NCBI GenBank assembly: GCA_965116885.1
Contig: OZ220741.1
Location: forward strand, 4,480,001-4,544,000
DNA from: Candidatus Latescibacterota bacterium
Lineage (GTDB): Bacteria; Latescibacterota; UBA2968
Direction: 5' to 3'
DNA: 64,000 nt
Shown: piece after piece, positions 43,774 through 55,416 of the stretch
Numbering within the stretch: position 1 is the stretch's first letter
Layout: each line of letters opens with the position of its first letter
Position numbers and translations under genes: made by a program
Notes under the pieces: generated by a model
The model's input: only the letters and a program-made list of their open reading frames with translations
Databases searched by the model: none
Told to the model about the DNA's origin: nothing

Positions 43774-44241
43774 TTACCAGCGATAATGCGCAAATGCGCG
43801 ATTAGCTTCTGCCATGCGATGCGTTTCTTCTCGTCGCTGCATTGCACGTCCTTGTCCGTTTGCTGCATCCATAAATTCACCGGCCAAACGCTGTGCCATC
43901 GTCTTTTCGCTCCGTTCTCTAGCAAATAAAATCAACCAGCGAATAGACAGCGCAAGACGTTCATCGGGCCGGACTTCTTCTGGCACCTGGTAAGTCGCAC
44001 CACCGACGCGGCGCGACCTCACCTTGACAACCGGTTTGACATTGTCAAGTGCTTTTTCAAAAGTCTCTAAACCGGAATCTCCACTTCGCGCTTCAACCAG
44101 ATCAAGCGCTTCGTAAAAAATTCGTTCTCCTACACTCTTTTTGCCCTTGCGAAACAAGCAGTTGACAAAACGCGTCACCAACAGACTGCTGTATTTGGGA
44201 TCTGGAGCCAGATGTCGTTTTTCCGCTCGCCGTTTTCGCAT
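43774..44241 (-). CDS. rpsG: 30S ribosomal protein S7
   Basis: [27 protein letters not shown]. Confidence 0.98.
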
Positions 44242-44268
44242 ATCCGGATATACCTTCTTTACAATAAA

Positions 44269-44296
44269 GGGGATACACCACCAAGGTGGTATCCCC
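44269..44296 (-). promoter_or_regulatory. Hairpin in the rpsL-rpsG intercistronic region
   Basis: GGGGATAC...GTATCCCC stem with inner CACC/GGTG. Confidence 0.45.
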
Positions 44297-44325
44297 CATG
44301 TTTATCGAATAATAGGCACTTGGGA

Positions 44326-44697
44326 TTAACCCGCTTTTTTTGTGCCGTATTTGGAACGACCCTGTTTGCGGTCTTCCACGCCAGTTGTGTCGAGTACGCC
44401 CCGAAGAATGTGATACCGAACCGAAGGAAGGTCCTTGACGCGACCGCCTCGGATGAGTACCACAGAGTGCTCCATGAGATTGTGTCCTTCACCCGGAATA
44501 TAGGCTGTGACTTCAAGACCATTCGTCAACCTGACACGCGCTACTTTGCGCAGAGCTGAATTGGGCTTTTTGGGCGTTGTGGTATAGACGCGTGTACAAA
44601 CACCGCGTTTTTGAGGACACGCTCTCAGAGCGGGTGCAGAAGAACGCTTGCGCTTGGCTTTTCGCCCCTTCCGAACCAGTTGATTAATTGTGGGCAA
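44326..44697 (-). CDS. rpsL: 30S ribosomal protein S12
   Basis: [25 protein letters not shown] start after GGAGG. Confidence 0.99.
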
Positions 44698-44751
44698 CTC
44701 AACCTCCTTAATTATGGGAGACTTGTAATATACCTGGTGTAATGGTAGCTG

Positions 44752-47700
44752 TCAAGCATTAATTGGAGGTAAACCAATGCTTTCAGTGGTCTCTTCTGCG
44801 AGGGCTTCAAAGACCTGTGATTCTTCCACCACATCTGTATCCAAATCGCGATATTTCAAAGCACCTGTACCGGCGGGAATGAGGTGCCCGATGATCACAT
44901 TTTCCTTTAATCCCAACAGCGCGTCAACTTTACCCTGTACTGCTGCTTCGGTAAGCACGCGGGTAGTTTCCTGGAAAGACGCTGCCGAAATGAAACTCTC
45001 GGTCAAAAGAGAGGCTCGGGTAATCCCCAACAAGATGGGATTGTTAGTTGCAGGATCGCCCCCTTCATCGCCTCCTTCAGCGAGGACCTTTTCATTTTCC
45101 TCGAGGAAGCGGAACCGGTCAACGAGTTCGTCTTCGAGAAAATTGGTATCTCCAGGATCTGTCACCTGTACTTTCTGCAACATCTGCCGGACTATGGTTT
45201 CAATATGCTTGTCATTGATTTTCACACCCTGGAGCCGATAAACCTGCTGAATTTCGTCAAGGAGATATTCCTGAACTTTCCGATCCCCCAGAATAGCCAG
45301 AATATCGTGTGGATTTACCGACCCTTCTGAGAGACGATCACCAGCAGTCACGCGATCACCTTCTTGCACGCGCAGATGTCGCCCGTAGGGAATGGTGTAT
45401 TTTTTTTCTTCTCCCTCATCAGCCGTGACCAGGACAACACGCGAGCCTCTCACCATACCACCAAAGCGCACCGAGCCGTTGATTTCTGTTACCACAGAAG
45501 CCTCTTTGGGGCGACGCGCCTCAAAAAGCTCAGCAACACGCGGCAAACCACCTGTAATATCTCGTGTTTTGCTGCGTTCTCGCGAAATTTTAGCCAGTGT
45601 ATCGCCATCTGCTACCTGATCGCCATCGTGTACCACCAGCCGCGCTCCCAGGGGAATGATATAATGCCCCAACTCTGCGCCGTCTTCATCAACAACCTTA
45701 ATGTGCGGAGATAAAGTGCGGTCTCGGTGCTCAATCACGACCAGTCCAGCAATGCTGGTAGTTTCATCGATTTCTTCGCGATATGTCATCCCTTCTACGA
45801 GATCCCCAAACTGAACCCTACCAGCTTTGGGCGATACAATCACATTATTATAGGGATCCCATTCGTAGAGTGCCTGGTCCTCTTCCACATCTTGTCCGTC
45901 CTCCACCCGCAACACGGCTCCATGCGGTACATGGTAGTGCCCCCCTCTTACACGTCCCTGATCATCCTGTACTTCGATCTCACCATTTCGACCGACCACA
46001 ACCCACGAATTTTCATCGCGCTGGACAGACTCGAGATGCTTAAAGATGACTTTTCCCGCACGCTTTGCACCAATCTCGGCCTGCTCGGCAATGCGGTTGG
46101 TAGTACCACCAATATGAAAAGTGCGCAATGTCAGTTGCGTTCCCGGTTCACCCACACTCTGAGCCGCGATAACACCCACAGCCTCTCCAATATCAACAGG
46201 TAGCCCGGTGGCGGGATTGCGACCATAACAGGCCATACAGACCCCTCGCCGAGTTTCACACGTCAGTACAGACCGCACAAAGACGCCTTCAATACCTGCA
46301 TCGGCAATTTTGTCAGCCAATTCTTCATCCAATAAAACGCCTGCGTCAACAATGCGGTCGCCTGTAATGGGGTCTTCCACATCCTCTAGCACTGTGCGTC
46401 CTACAATGCGGTCAGACAGCGATTCAACAACTTCTTCGCCTTCTTTCAAGGCTTCCATTTCAATGCCTAATATCGTTCCACAATCGGCTTCAGAAATAAC
46501 CACATCTTGCGACACATCCACCATGCGACGCGTCAAGTATCCCGCTTCAGCGGTCTTCAAGGCCGTATCGGCCAGACCCTTGCGACTGCCGTGCGTCGAA
46601 ATAAAATACTCAAGTACTGTCAGGCCTTCTTTAAGTGACGAAATAATAGGTGTTTCAATAATTTCGCCTATCGCTCCCGTCAATTTCTTTTGCGGTTTAT
46701 TCATCAGCCCGCGCATACCACCGAGTTGCTTGATCTGATCGTCGTTGCCTCGCGCGCCTGAATCCTTCATAATCCAGATCGAATTGAAGCCATTTTCGGC
46801 TTTTTCAAATGCACCAATCATGGCCTGGGCAATGTGATTAGTCGTATGCTGCCACACATCAATTACTTTGTTGTAGCGTTCGCCCTCAGTAATAGCCCCG
46901 ATCGCGTGTTGTTCAATAATTTTTTCTACTTCGTCCATAGCACCGGTAATCAACTCTTCCTTTTCAGGAGGCACGACCACATCGCTCACAGCAATCGAAA
47001 TACCCGACCGCGTCGCATAATCGTATCCCAATTTCTTCAAGCCATCGAGAAAATCTGTCGTAATGCGGTTGCCATACCGACTGTGGACTTCAGAAGAAAC
47101 TTTGCGGATACCTTTGTCATCGATCAACTCATTGATAAAGGGCATCGTTTCAGGGATAATTTCATTAAAAATGACGCGCCCAACTGTAGTTATCAAAAGT
47201 TTGCCATCAATGCGAACGCGCACGGCTTCGTGCAAGCCAATGCGTTCAAAATCATACGCCATGCGAGCTTCACCGGTACTGCTGAAGGTTTTGAGGTCCT
47301 CTTCCTTACCGTGAACGATTTTTGTCAGATAATACAGACCCAATGCTATTTCCTGAGGTTTATCGACCACAACAGGAGACCCATCGGCGGGTTTGAGCAA
47401 ATTGTTTGAAGACAACATCAATACCCGCGCTTCAATCTGGGCCTCGAAAGAAAGCGGCAGATGCACGGCCATTTGATCACCGTCAAAATCGGCATTAAAT
47501 GCCGCACAGACCAGAGGGTGAATGCGAATGGCTTTGCCTTCTACGAGCACGGGTAAAAACGCCTGAATCCCCAGGCGATGCAATGTCGGGGCGCGATTGA
47601 GTAAAACGCAGTGATCCTGGATAATTTCTTCGAGGATATCCCATACTTCGACGCGTTCGCGTTCGACCAATTTCTTTGCACTTTTAACGGTTTGAACAAG

Positions 47701-48855
47701 CCCCTTTTCTTCGAGCCGCCGAATAATAAATGGCTTGAATAATTCCAGAGCCATATGTTTGGGCAGACCGCATTGATAAAGCCTCAAATGGGGATCGACC
47801 ACAATCACAGAACGGCCCGAATAATCGACGCGTTTACCCAAAAGATTCTGGCGGAACCGGCCTTGTTTACCCTTGAGCAGATCGGAGAGCGACTTGAGAG
47901 AACGGTTGCCATCACCGCGAACAGCACGGGACCGACGGCCATTGTCAAACAGAGCGTCTACAGCCTCTTGAAGCATGCGTTTTTCATTGCGTAAAATGAC
48001 TTCGGGTGCTTTGATTTCAATCAGTTTTTTGAGCCGATTATTCCTATTGATCACGCGGCGATACAAATCATTGAGATCCGAAGTTGCAAACCGCCCGCCC
48101 TCTAAGGGTACAAGAGGACGCAAGTCGGGCGGGATGACGGGAATCACATCGAGAATCATCCAATCGGGCTGATTATCAGATTGGCGGAACGCCTCAACGA
48201 CCTTGAGGCGTTTGAGTGCATCCTGTTTGCGCTGCACCGAAGTCTCGAAACGAGCTTGTGTTCGCAGTTCAGCAGACAAGTCCTCAATATCGATTGCAGA
48301 CAGCAGTTTTTTGATTGCGCCAGCCCCCATATCGACATCAAATGAATACCCCTCATCTTCGAGATCAATCACCTCATCTTCAGTGAGCAAATCCTTGAAT
48401 TTGAGATCTGGAGCATCACCGGGATCCAGCACCACATACGATTCGTAGTAAATGATCCGCTCGAGATTGCGAACGGAAAGATTGAGCAAATACCCCATGC
48501 GAGATGGGAGCGACTTAAAAAACCAGATATGTGTCACCGGAACCGCCAATTCGATATGCCCCAGCCGTTCTCGTCTAACTTTCGATTGGGTCACTTCTAC
48601 CCCACACCGGTCACACACCACCCCCCGATATCGAATGCGCTTGTATTTACCACAATGGCACTCCCAGTCTTTAACAGGCCCAAAAATGCATTCGCAAAAT
48701 AAACCATCGCGCTCGGGCTTAAAAGACCGATAATTGATGGTTTCCGGTTTGGTGACCTCGCCGCGAGACCACCCGCGGATGGTTTCTGGCGAAGCCAGTT
48801 GAATGCGAATTGAATTAAAATCTAAGGGTTGATTGGCAAAATTGGCATCGGCCAC
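44752..48855 (-). CDS. rpoC: RNA polymerase beta' subunit
   Basis: [10 protein letters not shown]; Zn ribbon; RTFHIGG with SI3-type insert; SFQETT. Confidence 0.99.
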
Positions 48856-48894
48856 GAGAGAACCCCCTTTTCAAATCTTATGTAGTCAGTCTAT

Positions 48895-51800
48895 CTACGC
48901 GCTTTCGAGCACCACGTCCAAACACAGACTTTGCAATTCTTTAACCAGAACATTAAATGATTCCGGCACACCGGGTTCGGGTGGATTTTCTCCCTTTACA
49001 ATGGTCTCGTAAATTTTGGATCTGCCCGCCACATCGTCGGACTTGACAGTGAGCATTTCCTGTAACATGTGTGCAGCACCATAAGCTTCGAGCGCCCAAA
49101 CTTCCATTTCCCCAAAGCGCTGCCCGCCAAATTGGGCTTTGCCGCCCAAAGGTTGCTGGGTGACCAGTGAATAGGGTCCAATCGAACGCGCGTGAATCTT
49201 ATCACTGACCAAATGCGATAGTTTCAACATATAAATGATGCCGACCATCACTTCTTTATCAAATGGTTCCCCTGTTTGACCATCGTAAAGGAGTGTTTTT
49301 CCGTTTTCGGGCAAACCAGCTTCTCGCAACATATCCTGGACATCGTCCATGCTCGCGCCATCAAACACAGGGGTCGCAAAGTGGAGATCCAGTTTGTGGG
49401 CTGCCCAACCCAAATGGGTTTCGAGGATTTGGCCGAGATTCATGCGAGATGGTACACCGAGCGGATTCAAAACCAGGTCAATAGGTGTACCATCGGGCAA
49501 ATAGGGCATATCTTCTTCGGGCACGATAATCGAAATCACACCCTTATTGCCGTGCCTACCAGCCATTTTATCCCCTACCATCAGCTTTCTTTTTCGGGCG
49601 ACATACACCTTGACCAGTTGCACAATGCCCGGCGGAAGTTCATCTCCGCGCGCGATTTTTTCAAGCTCTCGCTCGAGTTCTTCTTCAGCCTGCTGCATCA
49701 CGTAAGCGGCCAGTTCAATCAATCGATCCACTTTTTGGGTTATCGCTGGACTATCACACCAATCCCCGTCGGGTGTTACAGCGCCCAGGTCAAATTTTTC
49801 CAGCGACCTTTCATTCAGCACCGTGCCTGCCTTTGCAACCACCTTGCCGTCTTCATCGCGCAGGGTATTGACTTTGCGGTTTTTGAGAAGAGTCAAAACC
49901 TGCTGATCGCGGCTTTGTTTCAATGACTCAATCTTGTCAGAAATGCGTTTTCTGGCAGCTTGGGTCTTTTCTTTATCTTCATTTCGCGTCTTTTCATCGC
50001 GCTCTTTACGAGAAAAAACTTTGCGATCCATGACCACGCCATCCATTCCCGGAGGAGCTTTGAGCGATGCATCGCGCACATCGCCGGCCTTTTCGCCAAA
50101 AATCGCACGCAACAAACGCTCTTCGGGCGACAATTCGGTTTCGCCCTTTGGGGTCACCTTCCCAACGAGAATATCACCCTGATTGACCTCTGCCCCCACG
50201 CGAATGATGCCGTGCTCATCGAGGTTGCGAACAGCCTGCTCACTCACGTTGGGAATTTCACGCGTAATTTCTTCTGTGCCGCGTTTGGTATCGCGGACCT
50301 GGAGTTCAAATTCTTCAATGCTAATTGACGTGAAAATATCCTTTTTAATGAGCCGTTCAGAAACAATAATGGCATCTTCAAAGTTGTATCCATGCCACGA
50401 CATAAACGCCACGAGCACATTGGAACCAAGCGCGAGATCCCCTCTATCTGTGGCACAACCATCAGCCAATAACTGACCTTTTTCAACTTTATCACCAACC
50501 TGTACGGCCGGACGCTGGTTGATACAAAAATCTTGATTGGATCGCTTGAATTTGGTCAAATCGTAAATGTCTTCATCAGACAGCGAAATGGTTTCAATAC
50601 TGCGGCTTTTTCTGCGCTTGACGACAATTTTGTTGGCACTGACATACGTCACAACACCAGCGTTTTTCGCAATGATCACAGCTTTTGAATCAACGGCAAC
50701 TTTGCGCTCGAGGCCCGTTCCAACACGCGGGGCATCCGTGATTAAGAGAGGCACACCTTGCCGCTGCATATTAGATCCCATCAATGCGCGGTTGGCCTCA
50801 TCGTGCTCGAGAAAAGGAATGAGTCCGGCGGCGGCACTCACAAGCTGGAAGGGTGAAACGTCCATATAGTCAATCACTTCGGGATCAACCACGGGAAAAT
50901 CGCCTCGCCGCCTCGCCTGCACGACATTATTTTCAAATTCGCCCTTGTCGTCAAGCGCCAGATTGGCCTGTGCAATGGTATGGCGATCTTCTTCGTCGGC
51001 AGGCAAATATGCAATATCCTGTGAAACTTTGCCACTTTTGACCTTCCGATAGGGCGTCTCGAGAAAGCCAAAGGGATTGACCTTGGCATACGTAGCCACA
51101 GACACAATCAGGCCAATATTTGGGCCTTCTGGCGTTTCGATAGGACAAATGCGGCCGTAGTGCGTGTGATGCACATCGCGCACCTCAAACCCCGCTCGAT
51201 CGCGCGTTAATCCCCCAGGTCCTAATGCCGACAAACGGCGTTTGTGGGTCAATTCGTCAAGCGGATTGATCTGCTGCAAAAACTGCGATAATTGGCTGCT
51301 GCCAAAAAAGGCCTGAACCACAGTAGATACAGTCCGCGCGTTGACCAGATCGTGGGGAGTAAGTTGCTCGGAATCGCGCAAACTCATGCGCTCCCTAATC
51401 GTGCGCGCCATGCGTGCCAAACCAATACTAAATTGCTTGGAGAGCAACTCGCCAACAGAGCGCACCCGCCGATTGCCCAAATGATCGATATCATCGGTAA
51501 ATCCCTCCCCCATAGCCAGAGTGAGTAGATAGTCGATGACTTTGATAAAGTCATCAATACACAGCATGGTGAAGTCAAGCGGAATATTATCGATCATATC
51601 CAAACGCTGGTTAATGCGATAGCGCCCAACAGTACCCAAATTATAACGCCGAGGACTGAAAAAATGTCGCTCGAGCAATCCGCGCGCAGTTTCAATATTG
51701 GGTGGATCGCCAGGGCGCAGCAGGCTATAAATCCGCGCGAGTGCTTCTTCCTCGTTGTCACACGGATCTTTGTCCAGCGTATTGTTAATAATCCCGCCAT

Positions 51801-52659
51801 CGTTTTCTGGATCGATATCCATCACAGTGATTTTGACAATCGCATTTTCCTTAAGGGCTAAGAGATGTTCCTCCATCAATGTGGTATAGGCTTCGACAAT
51901 CACTTCTCCCGTCTTTTTATTAACCACATCTTCGGTAACAATGCAATCGACGAGTTCTTCAGTAACTCTGACTGTGGTATCACCGTGAAAAATGCCCAGA
52001 ATTTCCTCGGACTTGTCAAATCCCAAAGCTCTCAACAAAGTCGTAACCGGCAATTTGCGTTTACGGTCGATATGAACGTACATAATATCGTTGATATCGA
52101 GGCTAAATTCGAGCCAGGCTCCGTTGTCGGGAATGATTCTGGCTGAAAATAAACGCTTGCCATTAGGATGAATGGAGTCGTCAAAAAATACGCCAGGAGA
52201 ACGGTGTAATTGGCTGACGATCACACGCTCTGAACCATTGATGACAAATGTACCTTCATCGGTCATCAACGGCAGTTCGCCTAAAAACACTGTCTGCTCG
52301 ACGATATCTTTAACGCGAAATTCGCTATTTCCCTGCTTTTCTCGGGAAACCAGACGGAGTGTCGAACGCAGAGGTACGGCATGAGTCGTACCGCGTTCGA
52401 GACATTCTTGTACATCGTATTTAGGAGTTCCAACGGAATAATCTACAAACTCTAAAGAATAGAGATTGTGGGCGTCTGTGATCGGGAAGATACCCTGGAA
52501 GACCGCCTGTAGTCCTTGCTTTTCGCGTGCTACAGGCGGTATATCCTTCTGTAAAAACCAGTCATAAGAATCGAGCTGGATATCCAGCAGATTCGGCATT
52601 TCGATTGCAGACGTGAGAGTTCCATACGATTTCCGGTCAATAAATCCTCTATCTGCCAA
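48895..52659 (-). CDS. rpoB: RNA polymerase beta subunit
   Basis: [30 protein letters not shown]. Confidence 0.99.
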
Positions 52660-52732
52660 GGGCTCACGCTCCTGTGCTGGAAGGCTAACGGTCAGTTACG
52701 GATTTGTATTGCTGCACAAACTTACGACAACC

Positions 52733-53101
52733 CTACTTGAGTTCCACCACCGCACCGGCTTCTTCCAGTTCTGCCTTGATCTGTTCGGCTTCTTCTTTTT
52801 CCACGCCTTCTCTTACGGTATTGGGAGCCCCATCAACCAGAGCTTTGGCTTCTTTAAGGCCCAATGAGGTAAGGCCGCGCACAACCTTGATCACCTGGAT
52901 CTTTTTATCCCCAGGAGACGACAAAACCACATCAAACTCTGTCTGCTCTTCTGCAACAGGAGCAGCATCGCCGCCATCGGGTGCTGCAACAACAGCTGCC
53001 TGTGCAGTCACACCAAACTTTTCCTCAAGAGCTTTGACCAATTCGGCCAACTCGAGCACTGAGAGTTTTTCAATTTCGCTAATAATGGATTCAACAGCCA
53101 T
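52733..53101 (-). CDS. rplL: 50S ribosomal protein L7/L12
   Basis: [21 protein letters not shown]. Confidence 0.98.
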
Positions 53102-53146
53102 GAACATGCCTCCGTCCAACAATGAATTGGGTGTGTGATAAGCGGT

Positions 53147-53680
53147 CTATTCGCCGCTTTCTTCCTCTTTTTTTTCTGCAACAGCTTGAAGTGTACCAAC
53201 GAGTTTTTGCAAAATGCCATTCAGCGTAAAGGCGAGGCCACTGATCGGACTTTGCATTGCAGATACCATCTGGCCCAGCAGAACATCGCGCGAAGGTATT
53301 TGGGCCAGCCTCTCTATCTGGTCTGCGACAAATATATCACCATCGATATACCCGGCTTTAATCGCGGGCTTGCCTTCGGTATCTTCAGCGAATTTGGACA
53401 GCACACGGGCCGGTGCTACTGGATCTTCATCGGCGCAAACAAGCCCAGTGGGACCGCGAAACACATCATCGAGCCCCTCAACTCCGGCTTGTTTAAGTGC
53501 CAATTTAGCCAACCGATTTTTTATTACGCGGTAAGAAACCGATTCCTCGCGGAGTTGCTTTCGCAACAGGGTGAATGAAGGAACGTCTAACCCCGTAAAA
53601 TCAGTTAGATACACCCCCTTGGCCCGTTTTAAGATATCTGTCAATTCTGCGACAGTAGCCTCTTTTTCAGCAGTTGGCAT
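53147..53680 (-). CDS. rplJ: 50S ribosomal protein L10
   Basis: DFTGLDV...LRKQLR...VIKNRL; synteny. Confidence 0.96.
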
Positions 53681-53697
53681 TTCTGTACCTTCCTTGT

Positions 53698-54399
53698 TCA
53701 ATTGGCCGCCAGCGCCGTGCGGTCCAGGCGGATGCCCGGCCCCATTGTAGTAGATAATGTGACCGAGCGCATGTACTGCCCTTTTGTAGCAGCTGGACGC
53801 GCTCTAATAATTGCATCGACCAATACCTGGGCATTTTCCCGAAGGCGCTGTGCATCAAAAGACGCTTTGCCCACAGGCGTATGCACATTGGCCGTTCTAT
53901 CGACTCGATATTCTACACGCCCCGCTTTGGCTTCCTGTACCGCACGCGCCGCATCGGGCGTCACCGTACCACTCTTGGGATTGGGCATCAGACCTCGAGG
54001 TCCAAGAATGCGTCCCAATCGTCCGACCTGTCCCATCATATCGGGCGTAGCAATAGCCACATCGAAATCTGTCCAGCCACCATTGATCTTTTCTACCAGA
54101 TCTTCGGCTCCTACAAAATCTGCCCCCGCCGCTTCGGCAGCAGTAGCAGGCTCCCCTTTGGCAAAAACTGCAACGCGTACGGATTTGCCCAGCCCGTGTG
54201 GCAAGACGACTGTGCCGCGCACGAGTTGATCGGCTTGCCGAGGATCAACGCCCAGCCGAAACGAAATCTCAACCGTTTCGTCAAATTTCCGAGTGGGCAT
54301 TTTTTTTAAGATGTCAATGGCGTCGGCCAGACTGTAATGCGTTTGGCGGTCAAAAAGCGCAGCCGCTTGTTTATAGCGTTTGGATTGCCCTCGTGCCAT
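53698..54399 (-). CDS. rplA: 50S ribosomal protein L1
   Basis: [21 protein letters not shown]. Confidence 0.98.
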
Positions 54400-54411
54400 A
54401 CATACCTCCGG

Positions 54412-54837
54412 TCAATTGTTGACGGTCAGGCCCATACTGCGAGCCGTCCCTGCAATCATGCGCTTGGCAGCCTCGACGCTGCCCGCGTTGAGGTCTTGAA
54501 CTTTCATTTCTGCAATTTCCTGTAGTTGGGCATCGGTCACGGCCCCCACTTTTTCTCGGTTGGATTCCGGCGATCCTTTGGCTATCCCCGCTGCCCTTTT
54601 GAGCAATACGGATGCAGGTGGGCTTTTCAATTCAAAAGAAAAACTCCTATCTGCGTAAACCGTGATAATCGCGGGAATGATCAAACCCTGTTTGTCCTGA
54701 GTTTGTGCATTAAAAGCTTTGCAAAACTCCATAATATTGACGCCGTGCTGTCCCAAAGCCGGACCAACCGGTGGGGTGGGAGTCGCCTGCCCAGCGGGGA
54801 TTTGCAACTTGATTGTCGTGAGAATTTTTTTCGCCAT
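54412..54837 (-). CDS. rplK: 50S ribosomal protein L11
   Basis: [26 protein letters not shown]. Confidence 0.98.
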
Positions 54838-54849
54838 TGGTGCCTCTCA

Positions 54850-55386
54850 TTATCGCGATTCGACAGCTTCTTCAACCTGCAAAACATCTAATTCTACAGG
54901 TGTATTGCGTCCAAAGATACTAACCATTACTTTGATCTTGCTCTTTTCTGGATTGATGTCGTCAACCAGGCCAATAAAATCGCTGAAAGGCCCATCTATC
55001 ACCTTGACGCGATCACCTACTTGATATGGAACATCAGAGGTTTCCTCGACCGGACGACGCTCAATTTGCCCCAAAATGCGGTTCACCTCTTCCTCGCGCA
55101 AAGGTTGTGGTCTCCGACCTGGACCGACAAAGCTCGTCACGCCCGGCACACTGGTGACAAAGTAGAGGGACTCTTTGTCCATATCCAGTTCAACCAAAAG
55201 GTAACTGGGCAAAAATTTCTTGAGGGAGGTCGTTTTCCGTCCATCCTTCATCTCCACGACTTCTTCAGTTGGCACAATCACCCGACCAATTTTGTCGCCA
55301 ACATCGATGTTCTCTTTGGCGGCCTCAATATAGCTCTTGACCTTATTTTCGTGCCCAGAATAAGTGTGGACAACGTACCATTTCAT
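54850..55386 (-). CDS. nusG: Transcription termination/antitermination factor NusG
   Basis: KWYVVHTYSGHENKV; KOW; SIFGRNTPVEL. Confidence 0.97.
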   Translation of the reverse strand: MKWYVVHTYSGHENKVKSYIEAAKENIDVGDKIGRVIVPTEEVVEMKDGRKTTSLKKFLPSYLLVELDMDKESLYFVTSVPGVTSFVGPGRRPQPLREEEVNRILGQIERRPVEETSDVPYQVGDRVKVIDGPFSDFIGLVDDINPEKSKIKVMVSIFGRNTPVELDVLQVEEAVESR

Positions 55387-55416
55387 CAGTCGAAAACTCC
55401 CTGACAAAAAATCCCG

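Follow-up and report, generated by a model that had tools for sequence, protein, structure and literature searches.

The 64,000-nucleotide stretch analyzed here, hereafter the window, comes from the genome of a Candidatus Latescibacterota bacterium (assembly GCA_965116885.1, contig OZ220741.1, positions 4,480,001 to 4,544,000) and contains rpoB, the gene for the β subunit of RNA polymerase. We focus on the rifampicin pocket of this protein, which carries glutamine at position 516 and aspartate at position 522 (E. coli numbering throughout). An original prediction, made from the letters of the DNA, had read these two residues as probable intrinsic rifamycin resistance. The pair is a deep trait of the class to which the bacterium belongs, and across bacteria Gln516 is found only together with an acidic residue at 522. 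The locus holds the following features, with residues assigned from their codons and an alignment to E. coli.

43774 to 55407, minus strand: the housekeeping array nusG-rplK-rplA-rplJ-rplL-rpoB-rpoC-rpsL-rpsG, from open reading frames and the Pfam names of the eight neighbors of rpoB
48895 to 52659, minus strand: rpoB, RNA polymerase β subunit, 1254 amino acids, from the open reading frame list, translation and Pfam
51226 to 51300, minus strand: rifampicin-resistance cluster I, the interval of the original prediction, translated
51274 to 51276, minus strand: codon CAG, Gln516, residue 462 of the protein
51256 to 51258, minus strand: codon GAC, Asp522, residue 468 of the protein
51244 to 51246, minus strand: codon CAC, His526, retained
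51229 to 51231, minus strand: codon TCG, Ser531, retained (Asn in rifamycin producers)

The numbering derives from the translation of 51196-51315 (minus strand), of which residues 2-40 form a gap-free alignment with residues 504-542 of the 1342-residue E. coli β chain. Translation, codons and alignment bear out Gln516, Asp522 and the codon coordinates originally given for them, and the CAC and TCG codons agree with the claim that H526 and S531 are retained. For the pocket as a whole, 43 positions (143, 146, 148, 508-534, 540, 563-572, 574, and 687) were compared with the enterobacterial RpoB of Tatumella (L244). The window protein differs solely at 515 (L), 516 (Q), 518 (I), 524 (L), and 530 (L) from this reference, which itself has Asp522. 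No difference between the two proteins is found in cluster II, in the N-terminal cluster, or at position 687. Tatumella morbirosei (G177:C6:257443-261330) carries Asp522 alone, with Asp516 kept and cluster I otherwise canonical, and one rpoB copy was found in its genome.

By its domain set, housekeeping context and single copy, the window protein is a bacterial RpoB. It contains the full set of domains (Pfam Rpb2_1, _2, _3, _45, _6, and _7; residues 23-1251), its best matches among solved structures are bacterial β chains, and its nearest relatives, titled Candidatus Latescibacterota, share 97% identity over 300 residues. A search of the bacterium's own genome, a 5.56-Mb single contig that is 98% complete, found one full-length rpoB. 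A resistant rpoB paralog of the rpoB(R)/rpoB2 type is thus ruled out by the absence of a second full-length rpoB from the genome. The only other rpoB match is a 1069-amino-acid fused β/β'-like protein without a cluster I match. Among the neighboring genes, as named by Pfam, there is no antibiotic gene cluster, and no ansamycin cluster adjoins rpoB, which is surrounded by genes for ribosomal proteins together with nusG and rpoC; the search for such a cluster did not extend to the rest of the genome.

The Gln516/Asp522 DNA pattern is present once each in 126 of 168 Latescibacterota genomes, and a reversed control pattern gave no matches in the same set. In the class of the window 122/132 genomes carry the pattern (121/131 plus the window's genome), with 29/30, 19/22, 3/3, and 70/76 in its families f1 to f4, compared with 4/36 Latescibacterota genomes outside the class. 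The canonical Asp516 pattern was found in 22/168 genomes of the phylum, all of them outside the class (0/131 within it) and none with the pair as well. Five of the ten class members without the pattern were inspected. Two of them had an rpoB segment, and both segments encode Gln516/Asp522, the DNA pattern being broken by a neighboring change, Arg520 in one and Ala523 in the other; in the remaining three no rpoB segment was found. Among the genomes outside the class with neither pattern, five were inspected: three have Ala516 and Asp522, one has Asp516 and Asn526, and in one nothing was found. Across the window's class, the pair counts as fixed. In a FastTree tree of 87 RpoB segments (residues 515-523 masked; local supports only), the window lies within a starred clade of 13 Gln516/Asp522 rows, next to Ala516/Asp522 rows, and two changes are needed for acidic 522 and three for Gln516. 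Taken together, the masked tree and the class-wide counts show that the pair is deep and was inherited from the ancestor of the window's class.

Single genomes and records of this survey depart from the common forms. In one (L254; G043:C70:13840-17733) Arg replaces the conserved Pro520, adjoining the Gln516/Asp522 pair. Another (G006; L261/L262) has Asp516, Gly517, Ala522, and Asn526 together with a second, divergent rpoB-like match, a 1474-amino-acid open frame of 33% identity. Four records titled Gemmatimonadota or Gemmatimonadetes (L048, L062, L073, and L076) combine Gly522 with Asn526, a panel resistance substitution, and form one starred clade.

To place the pair among bacteria at large, Gln516 was searched for in the cluster I context in one genome per species from 185,579 species. 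The scan returned at least 120 loci, so that bacterial totals are lower bounds. Position 522 is acidic in 120 of the 120 Gln516 loci among the matches listed, with Asp in 119 and Glu in one. Two collection-wide scans for Gln516 with a non-acidic residue at 522 (one for codons that begin with a letter other than G, the other for Ala, Gly, or Val codons) gave 0 stretches, while the same pattern with GAY at 522, used as a positive control, matches 136 of 264 collected loci, the window's included. When Asp522 was searched for exhaustively together with Asn, Lys, Asp, or Glu at 516, 33 stretches came up, of which 16 have Asn516, 14 have Asp516 and three are not rpoB. The Asn516/Asp522 loci belong to Nonomuraea, Sphaerisporangium, one Acidimicrobiales metagenome-assembled genome (MAG), one Anaerolineae MAG, and four Patescibacteria; of the Asp516/Asp522 loci eleven come from one uncultured group, one from Tatumella morbirosei, and two from Saccharibacteria. 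The coupling is therefore one-way: Gln516 occurs only with acidic 522 across bacteria, and the converse is weaker. We hypothesize that the coupling of 516 and 522 has a structural reason.

The 120 listed Gln516 loci are spread over many groups. The counts below hold among the matches listed and use NCBI record titles, some of which disagree with GTDB placement.

Chloroflexota: at least 32 loci
Latescibacterota: at least 22 loci
Actinomycetota: at least 20 loci
Poribacteria: at least 16 loci
Bacillota, Izemoplasmatales or Tenericutes: at least 16 loci
labelled Gemmatimonadota: at least 5 loci
Patescibacteria: at least 3 loci
labelled Planctomycetota: at least 1 locus
unlabelled: at least 5 loci

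One record titled "uncultured Gemmatimonadaceae" (L144) is identical in contig number, position, and sequence to G131:C4:38107-38139, from a genome assigned to Latescibacterota. Part of the carriers labelled "Gemmatimonadota" by NCBI thus belong to Latescibacterota in GTDB. In Poribacteria, 158 of 176 genomes carry Gln516/Asp522. By their titles, carriers come from a variety of sources, including a deep-water Latescibacterota MAG from Lake Baikal (L130), soil Chloroflexi, bioreactor Anaerolineae, a Clostridia MAG from horse faeces, and sediment lineages. Izemoplasmatales are among the Gln516/Asp522 carriers, and Actinokineospora spheciospongiae (L166) is a cultured Gln516 carrier. Cultured bacteria that have the pair and lack Asn531 include Actinokineospora species, Actinophytocola glycyrrhizae, Actinomadura formosensis, Kutzneria, Kibdelosporangium, and Hujiaoplasma nucleasis. 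The pair has been fixed independently in several phyla. In eight of the 120 listed loci, all from Anaerolineae/Chloroflexota MAGs (L104, L111, L112, L160, L177, L180, L185, and L195), Thr529, a change at another rifampicin-contact position, stands beside Gln516/Asp522.

Both positions are known from published resistance data, which we cite from the available parts of the respective papers. The substitution 522D is among the 57 reported resistance substitutions of a panel applied to 18,127 species (Bolourchi et al., 2025; PMC12337354). Dataset S3 of that survey holds 33 occurrences of 522D, almost all in actinomycetes, with Ala, Gly, or Asn recorded beside it at 516 where present (PMC12337354). 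516Q appears as an axis label in a figure of the supplementary information on resistance substitutions that are predicted by the E. coli screen of Yang et al. and missing from the panel; such substitutions are absent or found in <0.2% of species (PMC12337354). The names Latescibacterota, Poribacteria, Dehalococcoidia, Anaerolinea, Izemoplasma, and Gemmatimonas do not occur in the supplementary files of the survey as available (PMC12337354). In E. coli nearly all substitutions at 516, 526, and 572 lead to high-level resistance, and mutations of S522 and H526, which lie in the same helix, do likewise (Yang et al., 2023; PMC10550828). The window residues thus fall among reported cluster I resistance residues: Asp522 equals the panel's 522D, position 516 is not Asp, and 516Q is screen-predicted. 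The original description of 516 and 522 as established resistance positions agrees with these sources, with 522D in the panel (PMC12337354) and changes of 516 and S522 resistant in the screen (PMC10550828). According to the available part of a preprint, most cultured Chloroflexi tolerate 50 μg/mL rifampicin. A link from the pair to a phenotype through this group was not obtained, as 0 of 8 searched names of cultured Chloroflexota genera occur in the available Dataset S3 of predicted-resistant species (PMC12337354), and the tolerance is not tied to the pair.

The original prediction had also linked Gln and Asp at these positions to the rifamycin producer Amycolatopsis mediterranei, and this link proved sound at the level of the genus. 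Gln516, Asp522, and Asn531 occur together in 13/13 Amycolatopsis loci and in Prauserella halophila among the matches listed; Asn531 is present in 14 of the 120 listed Gln516 loci, all Amycolatopsis or Prauserella. Dataset S3 gives 522D with 531N for A. mediterranei, A. rifamycinica, A. tolypomycina, A. vancoresmycina, and A. kentuckyensis, and the survey states for A. rifamycinica that it carries both (PMC12337354). In the producer, the rifamycin cluster ends with rpoB, which is described as the main self-resistance determinant and for which three residues are reported to suffice (PMC6804068, PMC7283461). The available parts of such secondary papers do not name the three residues (PMC6804068, PMC7283461), and our literature search found nothing on S531N with Amycolatopsis. 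A search for the named substitutions returned only two tuberculosis reports, in which the change at 516 is part of a complex indel.

Amide-516/Asp522 forms also occur as one of two rpoB copies in other actinomycetes. Actinomadura macra has one copy with Gln516/Asp522 and one with Asp516/Ala522 (L208, L210). An Asn516/Asp522 copy stands beside an Asp516/Ala522 copy in Nonomuraea cavernae and another Nonomuraea (L246/L250, L247/L252), and in Sphaerisporangium corydalis (L249/L245). The cluster I sequences of these paired copies differ at exactly 516 and 522. A second Nonomuraea rpoB has been called rifamycin-resistant (PMC6985074, available part).

We consider it probable, at roughly 60%, that the Gln516/Asp522 pair lowers the rifamycin affinity or sensitivity of this polymerase, as judged from its sequence. 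Asp516 contacts rifamycin and the 520-528 helix gives the pocket its shape, and because of these two roles the pair most likely lowers the affinity for the drug. We read the sole housekeeping RpoB of the bacterium as a long-established variant of the rifampicin pocket that runs through the whole lineage: Gln stands in place of Asp516, and the negative charge returns six residues further on as Asp522. The class would gain an intrinsic, probably partial, target-site tolerance of rifamycins. Since Asp522 tolerates Asp516 (14 loci) and Gln516 is never found without acidic 522, we infer that Asp522 probably arose first, followed by the loss of a redundant or clashing Asp516. Epistasis that serves RNA polymerase function probably maintains the pair no less than any antibiotic does.

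Several points weigh against a lowered sensitivity. The strict coupling indicates strong epistasis, and the second change might bring back both the pocket's electrostatics and drug binding, so that a reduction in rifamycin sensitivity could be cancelled. In producers Asn531 is a third change and three residues are reported to suffice, hence the pair alone may give little resistance. Panel substitutions have failed to predict the phenotype in Francisella with 518D and in Bifidobacterium (PMC12337354, available part). The published single-mutant data come from the E. coli background, not that of the window, and the phylum Latescibacterota is uncultured. No minimum inhibitory concentration or half-maximal inhibitory concentration for RNA polymerase was found in the literature for carriers of the pair without Asn531. 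Finally, the genome holds no Arr rifampicin ADP-ribosyltransferase, an enzyme whose presence would point to rifamycin exposure (PF12120; a control search found the family in Corynebacterium glutamicum); Rph, Rox, Rgt, and HelR were not searched for.

Some of these points feed an explanation that we regard as possible if somewhat unlikely, namely that the pocket is compensated: Asp522 replaces the charge lost at 516, rifamycin binding stays near normal, and no useful resistance results. The pair would then be kept for polymerase function (initial transcription, speed, and termination) or because neither residue reverts alone. The absence of any exception to acidic 522 in the 120 listed Gln516 loci and the two collection scans speaks for compensation, as do the presence of the pair in whole phyla of very different habitats and the need of producers for Asn531 as well. 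Natural binding-site variants that alter polymerase properties are frequent, and 524L, which acts as a fast polymerase, is also found in the window (PMC10550828). Epistatic failures of resistance prediction are likewise documented (PMC12337354). Against compensation, each change has singly been tied to resistance in published screens and panels (PMC12337354, PMC10550828), and enrichment of the pair is seen in Amycolatopsis that produce rifamycins and in the additional rpoB copies of Streptosporangiales. At the drug contact itself, Gln cannot supply the charge that Asp516 has.

The original prediction had raised a habitat-driven origin, in which this organism, if a sponge symbiont, could have adapted to rifamycins from co-resident actinomycetes. 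Poribacteria are a mostly sponge-derived phylum. Their high frequency of the pair, its presence in the cultured Actinokineospora spheciospongiae and the fact that rifamycin producers share it speak for such an origin. We nevertheless judge it very improbable for this organism. The pair is fixed in the class with no Asp516 form there, so it is older than the window's genus. Its carriers include Izemoplasmatales and lineages from Lake Baikal deep water, soil, a bioreactor, horse faeces, and sediment alongside Poribacteria, and no Arr gene accompanies it in the genome. By the original prediction's own standard, residues found to be ancestral irrespective of habitat remove the selection argument; here they are ancestral to the class, and the argument fails. 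That the pair arose from sequencing or assembly errors, or by chance and without meaning, has a probability close to nil: 126 Latescibacterota and 158 Poribacteria genomes each hold the codon pair a single time, with silent-site variation around it and no match to the reversed control. A bolder extension of lowered drug affinity seems doubtful to us. In this extension the pair would be a convergent, epistatically locked, rifamycin-insensitive state that became fixed several times where lineages coexist with ansamycin producers (sponge holobionts, actinomycete-rich soils, and sediments); most Latescibacterota and nearly all Poribacteria would be intrinsically resistant, and rifampicin could be used for their enrichment and culture.

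Natural cluster I variants serve the genome-based prediction of intrinsic rifampicin resistance. Clade-wide variants that predict such resistance are already known (Asn531 in Spirochaetia, Asn526 in Mollicutes), and 522D in Amycolatopsis is in print. Our literature search met no publication stating that most Latescibacterota and Poribacteria normally carry the pair, nor one stating that Gln516 is limited to acidic 522; we regard this coupling rule as a modest new observation. Where MAGs are well represented, as in the collection scanned here, one Latescibacterota class and Poribacteria normally carry the pair, which is also common in Chloroflexota, while the 2025 survey reports 522D only 33 times (PMC12337354, available part). 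The rule is a clean case of natural epistasis inside a drug pocket and warns against scoring resistance positions singly. If the pair lowers drug binding, rifampicin might be a practical selective agent to enrich never-cultured phyla; its use as a selective cultivation agent has been reported for deep-sea Chloroflexi. If the pair does not lower binding, less weight should be given to 522D as a predictor wherever 516 has changed too.

The fused β/β'-like protein found in the search for rpoB copies lies outside the window (L265:8215-11424, minus strand, corresponding to G000:C1:4866214-4869423). Its single chain of 1069 amino acids combines Rpb2_3 and Rpb2_6 with a β'-type Rpb1_2 domain and the motif DFDGDQ. 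A gene for an extracytoplasmic function (ECF)-type sigma factor precedes it by 1.2 kb on the same strand. In three other Latescibacterota genomes from two other families, an ECF sigma gene is directly upstream of or overlaps the fused polymerase gene, with identities across these genomes of 41-45% for the polymerase and 55-58% for the sigma factor. From sequence, the ECF sigma factor and the fused mini RNA polymerase look like a conserved module, of which a title-level literature search gave no obvious description. The upstream region (L265:11467-15405, minus strand) encodes an unknown 381-amino-acid open reading frame, the ECF sigma factor, an unknown 315-amino-acid open reading frame, and a 344-amino-acid DksA/TraR zinc-finger protein. 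Downstream of the polymerase gene are two tandem pairs of a BlaI-type repressor and a BlaR1-TonB_C sensor.

Among known systems, the E. coli mutants obtained by saturation mutagenesis (Yang et al., 2023) concern the same positions 516 and 522. They are single changes, whereas the window has a locked double change plus L515, I518, L524, and L530. Spirochaetia with Asn531 and Mollicutes with Asn526 resemble the window's class in that a substitution at a cluster I resistance position is fixed in a high-rank clade (PMC12337354). There, other positions and a single change are involved, and the literature reports a resistance phenotype, which it does not for Latescibacterota (PMC12337354, available part). 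The Amycolatopsis producer RpoB shares Gln516, Asp522, and the retained His526 with the window protein, Gln516 having been read in congeners and not in A. mediterranei itself. It differs by Asn531, where the window has Ser531, and its gene ends the rifamycin gene cluster, whereas the window rpoB lies in an ordinary rplKAJL-rpoBC operon. Without Asn531 and an adjoining ansamycin cluster, the window protein does not qualify as a producer-type self-resistant RpoB. The merodiploid Streptosporangiales (Nonomuraea rpoB(R)-type) have, in the loci analyzed here, an amide at 516 and Asp522 in their extra copy. In these actinomycetes the variant belongs to a duplicated rpoB, whereas in the window it is the sole full-length rpoB.

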